This document shows, piece after piece, positions 3,201 to 6,200 of a stretch of 64,000 bases of DNA. The position numbers were made by a program, and so were the translations under genes. The notes under the pieces are model-generated. The model was not told the origin of the DNA and did no database searches. It worked only from the letters and a program-made list of their open reading frames with translations. This stretch comes from Stylophora pistillata (lineage: Eukaryota), in assembly GCF_002571385.2 (NCBI RefSeq), contig NW_019217960.1, forward strand, positions 130,308 to 194,307, read 5' to 3'. Numbering within the stretch: position 1 is the stretch's first letter; every line of letters begins with the position of its first letter.

Positions 3201-6200
3201 AGTTTGATGGCCGTACCGTTATCAAACATGTTCACTCTGTGAAAAAAAGACCATTATGTTTTCCTATCATTCACTTAATGACCTTTTTTGGAATCAAAAC
3301 GTCGTTTCTTCTTACTAAATACTCTACTCCAAAGGAAATTCTGTCTCTCATTTTACACAGGTGGAAAGATTACAAAACATGAGATGTGTTTATTTGTCAT
3401 TAGGTTGTCACTGGAAAGTGCTATGATTCCGTTCTTGCACTTGCATCTGCCCTTCATTACATGATTTTAGATGGCTATGACGTCGGTGGGGAAAAGTTAA
3501 AATTTGACTTTAGCATTGGCACAGTCAAACCTTGGAAAAATGGAGCAGAATTAATGAAGTACATAAAAAAGGCAAGCAAATGAGCACTATACAGTTATCC
3601 ATTCGTATCTTCAGGCTTCATGCGGGGCGTGTACATTATGTTCTAACAGGGAACATGATGAGAGTGCTTTTCAAAGGGATGGATGCTGGGGAACACTTTG
3701 TTGGAGGATGGGGTTGCAACAGATATTCGCAACCATCTCTTTTCTAGTTTGAGTCAGCCTTGCTTGACATATCTTAATAAGTCCTTAAGCAAATGTACTC
3801 CAGAATAACCAATTTTACCTGAAGCTACGCTTTTATGCCGCTTAGCAAGACAGCTTTCCGAAATTAACTAAACAAAAAGAAACGCGATGTGTAAAAACAA
3901 GAAATTTGTGGCAAAATGTAGTGTACTCGAGGTTTGCTGGGTGGGAGATTTCGAGAAAATGGCGCACATGAGTACTCACTCTTGGGGCTAGTTGTAGTAG
4001 AGCTAACGCTTGACACGTCAGTCTTATAATTAACAATTGGTTTATGCTTTAGCGTGCACTATCGAGTTATGGAGCACGCGGGAAGTTTGGAGAGCACGAA
4101 AGAAGCGTAAGAGTTGCCCGAGGCGATAGCCGAGGGCAACTCTAGCTTCTTGAGTGCTCTCCAAACTTCCCACGTGCTCCATAACTCGATAGTGCACAGC
4201 TGAAAGCATGAACCAATTGTTTTAGAACATAGCCGGTGGAATTGTGCATCAAATGCGACGCGAAAAACGGACAACAATATCAGTTGAAGCGAATCGTGAC
4301 GGCGCTGATGCCGAGTCTCCTTTTCCTTTGTTTTTCTCTTTTTCTGCCTCATTTAAGAACTCTAGCCCATGGGAAAAGGTCGAAACATTGTCTTCGTTTT
4401 CGGACTAGCAGGCCGAGTTTCTGTTTGTATCCATTATTGTCGCGAAATGTATTATTTTTCCCCGCACTAGCAATGGCCGCTCGCGCGAAAAAAAAATTTC
4501 TGGCGAAGTCGGATTTGCTGACGCTATCAGCGTGCACTATCGGGATTTTGAGCACGCTTACGTATAATGAATTTGATTGCGCGACTCTGCTAGCTATGTT
4601 CTAAAACTCTTTAATTAGGTGGCCAATTTATATTCAGTTGATGAACCAAGTATATTGTAATACCCTCCATCGACGGGGCACCACGCTTTCTTTAGAAACG
4701 TACCCCTTTTATTTAGTTATGAATTTGTTACATCTATGTAAGAAACAGAATTATTCCTCGGACATACATGTAAACTCATACCTCCACCGTGGATCAAGGC
4801 AGGGATGTGGTTGGAACCCCCCTTACGTTACCTTGCGATATTTTGTAAAGCGCTTACCTTAAATAGATAGCCTGTTTTTTCGTCTACAAGATGATGTCGA
4901 TATTATGGAATATATTTAGTAAATAAACCACTTCGGGCGGCTGGTATGTCGGCTGATAATGTCCGTGGCTGAGAGATTGTCCGAAAAATGAATATTTGGC
5001 CGAGAAGCGAGTTCGGGGGCAAACATGAAATTTTGAGGACAATCTCTCAGCCAGGGACATTATCATCCGACATACCAGCAAGCCAGAACGGGGTTTATTT
5101 ATTTTATAACCCTCCCATTAATTTTCACATCGCAATTAAGCCGTGCGTAAACACAGTAAAAAAGCCAGTGGTGATCTGATGGCGAATGCGCATGACTGAC
5201 GCAAGCAAGCAAAAAAGAAACGAGTTTGGTTTCCTTCCATGTAAACAGGAGAAAGAAAAAGTTGAAACTCTTGTGTTCACTATGTTTCTTTTTCACGGAA
5301 AAAATCGGAGGACAAATATTGACGCGGACGGGGGTTATTGCCTGATAACTGTGCTATGATTTTGCACCACGTGGCGTAAAGTAAGCGATAAAATCGCGCC
5401 AAAATTAATGGGTGGATTATAAGTGCTAATAGCACTCTACTATGGCGGAATTTTTTACAAGTTTTATTCACTTTTTGCACTATAATTTTTGTCTTGTCAA
5501 AGGAAAATAAGACTCAGAAAATAAATGATGGTGTTACCGTGCTTCCTTTTTCAACTTAAAAGTGGTGTTCACCCACACTTCCCCCTTTTAACATCCGAGG
5601 GTTTTAGCTGCCTTATCGATCATTGCGAAAACAGAAGTTCCTCACAGGTATATACTATTAGTTACATCAAGTTTTACGATAGACTTCTCCAATAGATATC
5701 TTCATTTAAATAAAAGAATTACTTTTAAAAAACGTTACCGTAATAAATCACAAAACATGACTTCTAGGTCCGTACGAGTGGTATTATGAATGACTTGGAA
5801 TTTGGCGGAGACGGTTCACCAACTTTTCAGGAATTTGACATTGTCAATTTAGGAAGAACTGGTTTCGTGAAGGTATTTCATTACTGAAAATGTGTACATA
5901 ATACCAAGTAAGCTTTGGCGGGAAGGGTTAGATGGAGGTCAAAGCCTAAAAAAATTGGGTAACTTACATTGATGGTTTGCAAATATATGCCATGAAAAAA
6001 AAAAGAGATAACTAAAAAAAGATTAGATCAAGATCAAGATAACTTAGTTTTAATCAGAGACCTGAAATTAGAGTCAAATATCATTTGATAATGCCATTCT
6101 GTGGAAAAAGGTTCGATTGCATAATAATTGCCAATGTGGTTTGATTTTCTTATCCTAGGTCGGCAAATGGACGCCATCGCAAGGAGTTGTCATGTTTCCA

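Follow-up and report, generated by a model that had tools for sequence, protein, structure and literature searches.

Results

The window analysed in this study comprises 64,000 nt of a 398-Mb assembly of the Stylophora pistillata genome and harbors seven short elements (E1 to E7, Table 1) among host genes that are ordinary, namely two tandem peptide-transporter genes, a zinc-finger frame and an ion-channel exon. The window also contains a long tRNA-like palindrome, a reverse-transcriptase fragment and several inverted-repeat elements to which the junction rule described below does not apply.

Table 1. Positions of the elements and other features in the window (L numbers denote loci fetched from the same genome)
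Feature	Position	Strand	Remarks
E1, whole element	4030..4604	+	575 bp; almost certainly non-autonomous CryptonA; internal deletion derivative of L136/L155/L237 (2.1-2.9 kb, recombinase-coding); young family
E1, left end TTAA and terminal hairpin A..A'	4030..4221	+	GC-GATA-GC tip
E1, inner junction TTTTA and arm B	4220..4233	+	complement of the joined ends minus two T
E1, arm B' and right end TAA	4593..4604	+	
E2	4916..5422	+	junction 5102-5106; long relative L175, both termini around the recombinase frame, junction lost
E3	35292..36128	+	decayed, with microsatellite and inserted DNA; junction 35477-35481; long relatives L138, L148
E4	39889..40182	-	junction 40073-40077; long relative L128
E5	56077..56383	+	junction 56193-56197; long relatives L123, L131, L168
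E6	58999..59303	-	double hairpin; junction 59190-59194; long relative L153, both termini, junction lost
E7	45352..45831	+	decayed hairpin, weak B..B', interrupted by a MITE; membership uncertain
MITE in E7	45507-45691		185 bp, inverted ends
Palindrome of two back-to-back tRNA-like repeat copies	2263-2696; also 25381-25633, 61927-62180		434 bp, 99% perfect
Inverted-repeat elements outside the junction rule	36574-37121; 46113-46362; 37393-37597; 57370-57686		
Reverse-transcriptase fragment	10578-11171		RVT_1, E 6e-19
Tandem POT-family peptide-transporter genes	27190-29004; 33275-34840		
C2H2 zinc-finger frame	17799-18749		
Ligand-gated ion-channel exon	7276-7773		

Six of the seven elements followed one common rule, TTAN-[A..A']-TTTTA-[B..B']-TAA when the hairpin is turned to the left, in which a terminal hairpin of 105-190 bp abuts a second inverted repeat through a short inner junction. 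In these six main elements, the outer A/A' arms matched at 11-12 of 12 positions and the B/B' arms at 6-10 of 10, the lowest value being that of E5, which was scored with its end one base too far; the right end of E5 most likely lies at 56383, with TAA decayed to TCA. A scan of the window with this rule, which was derived from the window elements themselves and is thus not an independent test, gave four matches with exactly the bounds of E1, E2, E3 and E6, compared with 0-1 in each of 10 shuffles, and did not recover E4 or E5. The structure-based scan was extended to 567 kb taken from fixed places, where the rule matched 13 times, compared with 0-4 times in three shuffles. The gap between the arms was 7 nt in head-to-tail tandems (TAA^TTAA) and 5 nt (TTTTA) at the inner junction.

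The split-inverted-repeat layout proposed by the initial annotation was therefore found in all six main elements, and several of its details required adjustment. Four of its elements were matched exactly by the rule scan, except that the first ends at 4604 rather than 4606, and its end for E5 (56381) most likely shifts to 56383. The inner junction had been described as the reverse complement of the junction formed by the two ends, but it is 2 nt shorter (5 versus 7). The elements, which had been called unrelated in sequence, mostly differed, but the hairpins of E1 and E3 were 80% alike over 60 nt and those of E4 and E6 approximately 70% alike over 115 nt. The motif CCAATCAG, reported as frequent near the end, was exact in only three of the six elements (E3, E4 and E6). 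E7, listed as a weaker member, did show a decayed hairpin and a weak B..B' repeat, but it fitted only loosely and contained a MITE; one relative of E7 was found, at 71% identity, and no long recombinase-coding partner was found for it among the recombinase loci. The inserted MITE itself had at least five relatives at 80-83% identity in the fixed-place sample.

The elements recurred as whole units. All 25 fetched loci of E1 were 99-100% identical with the same ends, and all 30 fetched loci of E6 were full-length and approximately 94-96% identical, with 40 of approximately 1,550 candidates scored in each search. Exact end patterns occurred 312, 154 and 377 times, and the reversed patterns did not occur. 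Moreover, hairpins standing alone, as would be expected if adjacent MITEs had been mistaken for a unit, were sought among 112 hairpins for which the two outer ends could be read; in this set, overlapping loci are unmerged and probes for E4 and E6 cross-react. Of these hairpins, 103 lay between a terminus and a junction, 3 lay between two junctions, 6 met a gap or other letters, and none had flanking DNA on both sides. The part of this set free of full-length selection consisted of 6 fixed-place and 18 recombinase-locus cases, of which 6/6 and 17/18, respectively, had one terminus and one junction. Hairpins were frequent in the fixed-place sample (117 in 567 kb). Sequence-blind tests for abutting repeats gave little signal: an offset scan showed a broad rise (18 matches at offsets 1-3 and 9 at 14-20), and the gap histogram lacked a sharp peak because ungapped arms break at indels.

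Tandem copies of the E1 and E6 types were present with their ends joined as TAA^TTAA, and copies were also inserted on one another's ends, including across families (L274 and L314). Three palindromic E1 dimers with a shared hybrid hairpin and B..B' on either side (L033:547-1506, L052:2079-3040 and L294:564-1525) all touched assembly gaps. A gap-free nest at L289:567-1719 consisted of an E1 copy inserted, in the reverse orientation, into the inner junction of a second copy; that junction carries two additional bases. Rolling-hairpin replication was considered for the dimers and set aside because all three lie at assembly gaps and because a nest of the L289 type, followed by deletion between its two hairpins, would yield the same form. 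In L342, L299 and the window (59193-59301), the hairpin tip alone was flipped or one arm was converted to the other, which suggests template switching within the hairpin. We rejected a routine flip-flop, because among the 22 E1 copies whose junction could be located a single one had its whole hairpin flipped, and it forms part of a palindromic dimer.

Long copies of 1.4-2.9 kb in the same coral genome shared termini with all six main elements and enclosed a DUF3504 tyrosine-recombinase gene. A DUF3504 profile search of the genome listed 91 matches, and DNA was taken around 70 of them, together with 20 further integrase or DUF3504 matches and 30 integrase loci. In L136 and L155, positions 1-254 and 256-575 of E1 flanked the recombinase gene at 86-93% identity; therefore, E1 is an internal deletion. 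The full layout was kept in the long partners of E1, E3, E4 and E5, and the junction was lost in those of E2 and E6. Furthermore, DUF3504 families with the same layout and different end sequences were found at L059, L060, L063, L068, L071, L079, L117, L118 and L139. A lenient layout scan, which overlooked four known partners and includes chance matches, passed 21 of 74 DUF3504 loci. The corresponding figures were 9 of 109 for random intervals (p 4.5e-4) and 3 of 23 for loci with DIRS/Ngaro-type recombinases (p 0.17). The hairpin lay 3' of the gene in the partners of E1 to E6 and 5' of the gene in L059, L060, L068, L117 and L145. The strongest phage-integrase matches came from short contigs (L086-L096 and L115) that lacked a DUF3504-type match and are probably bacterial DNA within the assembly.

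The L136 frame scored 35.1 bits against Pfam DUF3504 (cut-off 29.7) and E 1.4e-5 against phage integrase. Among 82 homologues, the catalytic residues were retained almost throughout (R126 in 81, K160 in 79, H253 in 82, R256 in 81, H279 in 82 and Y288 in 82), and the named homologues came from stony corals and sea anemones. The structure model of an 83% identical homologue, P0002 (pLDDT 82.8), matched the folds of QRICH1 (best, E 6.7e-8), Cre and Xer, and a sequence search of solved structures gave nothing below E 0.99. A GT-AG intron of 222-224 nt, called from splice signals and one public gene model that splices it, was intact in 7 of the 12 loci examined (6 places), and no clean intron loss was found among the matched loci. 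Of the long E1 copies examined, only L136 had an unbroken second-exon frame with the complete set of catalytic motifs, and no copy that was both young and autonomous was found. Neither a reverse-transcriptase nor a RepHel frame was noticed among the frames listed for long copies (L136 and L155).

After removal of tandem ends and merging by flank, 78 left and 80 right ends remained, whose flanks gave the consensus W(A/C)TAN^WWNNNNWTA against a background of approximately 0.30 for A or T. On the left, A occupied position -2 in 73/78 and T position -3 in 62/78; on the right, T occupied +8 in 75/80 and A +9 in 52/80. The pattern recurred in sets taken in genome order, which overlap partly with the former set (E1, 21/27 and 23/26; E6, 18/18 and 26/27). 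Judged from these flanks, the target is a dyad, TA-N8-TA. The insertion point lies three bases to the left of the dyad centre and coincides with the border of a 6-bp core, where a tyrosine recombinase would be expected to cut. In the dif site, two half-sites likewise flank a central region of 6 bp, which determines where cleavage occurs (PMC5357621), so the geometry is the same as that described for dif. The six bases past the insertion point, after the right ends, varied freely. Empty sites were compared as the initial annotation had recommended, and two paralogous ones without duplication were found among 49 full-length pairs (L050 versus L136/L236/L248; L250 versus L187, this pair showing a slip of one base within a run of A). 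Divergence was too high in a third pair, and the remaining rows were tandem self-matches. Because these empty sites lack TT in the target, the terminal TT is the element's own. Coral metagenomes are among the public runs containing the window, and no empty allele of E1 or E2 was present in the contigs of four public runs. The similarity of the left flank TAN to the right end TAA was the sole resemblance to the 4-6 bp terminal direct repeats of fungal and oomycete-type elements, and the terminal inverted repeats at both ends and the target duplication of MITEs derived from DDE transposons were likewise absent.

The two ends behaved differently. TTAACAA was kept at all 30 E1 left ends and at 18 of the 19 E6 left ends that were located, so that 48 of these 49 unselected ends keep the element's core letters; a further 11 E6 left ends were not located. 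Right ends outside tandems never carried the exact TTAACAA (0/60), and five of 60 matched TTAACA at five of six letters, of which one has a normal left end and three are E6 cases that start with the same ten letters. Two-strand exchange at a non-matching core predicts two forms of copies and only one was seen; therefore, the left ends that retain the core letters point to exchange of one strand only. When the hairpin-first strand was folded as a circle, the ends were predicted to pair with the inner junction, leaving the first two T unpaired in five of six elements. Total folding energies of the two strands were alike, with the opposite strand favoured in 4/6. Mini-hairpin tips of the GNA/GNNA type, a motif whose stability has been described (PMC13037366), lay mostly on the hairpin-first strand (classified copies: E1, 52/56; E5, 13/13; E6, 29/36) in the three families tallied, E2, E3 and E4 having too few copies; the E6 copy of the window carries its tip on the opposite strand.

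Discussion

In this study, six of the seven short elements of the window were traced to long copies with the same termini, and they are almost certainly non-autonomous CryptonA DNA transposons. The assignment to CryptonA is drawn from the predicted DUF3504 domain and from the best modelled fold match, which was to the Crypton-derived QRICH1. The proposal that the elements are non-autonomous and mobilised by a tyrosine recombinase was thus supported for all six main elements, and the remark that the window holds no autonomous partner agrees with the lack of a DUF3504 match on its contig among the 91 listed. The elements do not, however, form a structurally defined class of their own, as had been suggested; they are derivatives of a known group, and their layout is a general structure within that group and not a pair of adjacent MITEs. 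The families may already stand in Repbase or Dfam as Crypton-N entries.

Animal Cryptons with non-autonomous forms have been reported by Kojima and Jurka in 2011, with no terminal repeats found according to the part of that report available (PMC3212892). CryptonA of animals as described there resemble the present elements in their single DUF3504 gene, cnidarian hosts, abundant deletion derivatives and lack of target duplication, whereas the present elements also possess a hairpin at one terminus, an inner copy of the junction and an asymmetric inverted repeat. Likewise, the accessible text on fungal CryptonA mentions no clear repeats (PMC13465315), non-autonomous Cryptons have been called difficult to classify because they offer no structural features (PMC12130899), and the human repeats Eulor5/6 have been filed as Crypton remnants (PMC5753468). 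A literature search covering few subscription journals found no description of this layout for Cryptons. The end anatomy, target and strand bias of these CryptonA elements are not described in the literature examined, in the portions accessible.

The mechanism of Cryptons has been described as untested, with a double-stranded circle assumed (PMC13565253). We propose instead, with a probability of roughly 60%, that the elements may move as one folded single DNA strand, by analogy with integron attC sites and CTX phage, in which a folded single strand recombines (PMC3458562, PMC5027507, PMC5357621). In this model, the hairpin-first strand would pair A with A' and B with B' by folding, and the inner junction would thereby become the partner strand of both ends. 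The recombinase would then exchange that single strand at TAA^TTAA and release a single-stranded dumbbell circle, and the other donor strand would let replication restore the donor in a copy-out manner. The folded circle would offer a recombination site of two duplex arms with an uneven core (7 versus 5 nt, two unpaired T), a single strand of which would be exchanged with a chromosomal TA-N8-TA at the same position, the resulting junction being resolved by replication. As one-strand exchange followed by replication would need no core homology, no duplication would arise. Moreover, the shortfall of 2 nt in the inner junction relative to the joined ends would fit a folded single strand better than a plain double-stranded circle.

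The most serious competitor, which we consider rather unlikely, keeps the donor double-stranded, either as a circle or as two chromosomal ends. One pair of strands would be exchanged at non-matching cores, replication would finish the reaction, and the inner junction would be an accessory or regulatory site. Such a scheme accounts for the dyad target, the absent duplication and the strand asymmetry, and it has precedents in VGJ phage (PMC5357621) and the SE elements (PMC9345347). In addition, the double-stranded circle junction of E1 already fits the target spacing, and the folding energies do not prefer the hairpin-first strand. However, a double-stranded donor leaves unexplained why each diverging family preserves an inner copy complementary to its own ends, as well as the fixed 2-nt difference and the strand-biased mini-hairpin tips.

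The Crypton model in print (PMC3212892, PMC13565253) appears improbable for these elements. It holds that a double-stranded circle is cut out between short direct repeats and integrated by two-strand exchange at a matching core, and the likeness of the left flank TAN to the right end TAA agrees with it. The free variation of the six bases after the insertion point, however, leaves no core homology, and the model is further weakened by the one-sided ends, since the reciprocal arrangement was not seen. The yeast 2-micron plasmid is a circle that flips through an inverted site. A variant in which the element circle flips in this way via the inverted inner site would suit the minority of flipped hairpin tips, but whole-hairpin flips were as rare as reported above.

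A still less probable explanation is that another enzyme moves the short elements, either the HUH nuclease of Helitron2 or the reverse transcriptase and recombinase of DIRS, with the Crypton gene as cargo. Helitron2 also has asymmetric terminal repeats, with a hairpin directly after the 3' repeat (PMC3627910), and tandems occur; DIRS shares the topology of the internal complementary region (ICR), and DIRS-type recombinases are present in the genome. Against both stand the divergent DUF3504 gene that each of the six families has between its own ends, the dyad target in place of TT or AT, the length of the hairpins and the lack of a reverse-transcriptase or RepHel frame among those listed. Furthermore, the long copies retain the intron, and a DNA route is therefore favoured. 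Chance adjacency of two independent MITEs, to which the hairpin-rich genome and the peakless gap histogram might lend some colour, can be practically dismissed given the absence of hairpins flanked on both sides and the 94-100% identity of whole units at dispersed sites, and for E1 and E6 it is refuted.

Several known systems resemble these CryptonA elements. The comparison with the DIRS internal complementary region made in the initial annotation was right as topology (PMC7192593): DIRS1-type elements also have a tyrosine recombinase and, near one end, an inner segment complementary to the joined ends; they insert into their own copies; and their ICR is essential and their intermediate single-stranded, as is proposed here. 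They differ in that the elements described here lack long inverted LTRs, gag and reverse transcriptase and keep an intron; moreover, the DIRS-1 ICR is exactly complementary (PMC7192593), whereas the inner junction here lacks 2 nt. The likeness to integron attC and CTX attP would consist of a folded-strand site with unpaired bases, exchange of one strand and resolution by replication. The present elements are not members of that group, being eukaryotic, with their own enzyme and many loose targets, and their fold would join both element ends via the inner copy. Helitron2 likewise combines an asymmetric inverted repeat with a terminal hairpin behind it, causes no duplication and forms tandems (PMC3627910), whereas here the enzyme is a Cre-fold tyrosine recombinase and not RepHel, the hairpin is far longer and the target is a dyad. 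The SE elements of Vibrio also use a tyrosine recombinase and copy out one strand, as may be the case here, but they are bacterial and have four genes, and no inner junction copy is mentioned in the part of the source available (PMC9345347).

In conclusion, we lean slightly towards regarding animal CryptonA as the eukaryotic counterpart of integron cassettes and CTX phage, in which one strand would be copied out as a dumbbell, with a site completed by the inner junction and two unpaired bases, and pasted at TA-N8-TA by a single exchange. The layout provides a search rule for non-autonomous Cryptons. The ends, target consensus, cut position and exchanged strand can all be read from the sequence, so that substrates are defined for a direct test. 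If the model is true, the internal complementary region of DIRS elements would be the same recombinase-site device and not only an aid to reverse transcription, and genome engineers would have an interest in an animal tyrosine recombinase able to insert single-stranded DNA at loose sites.
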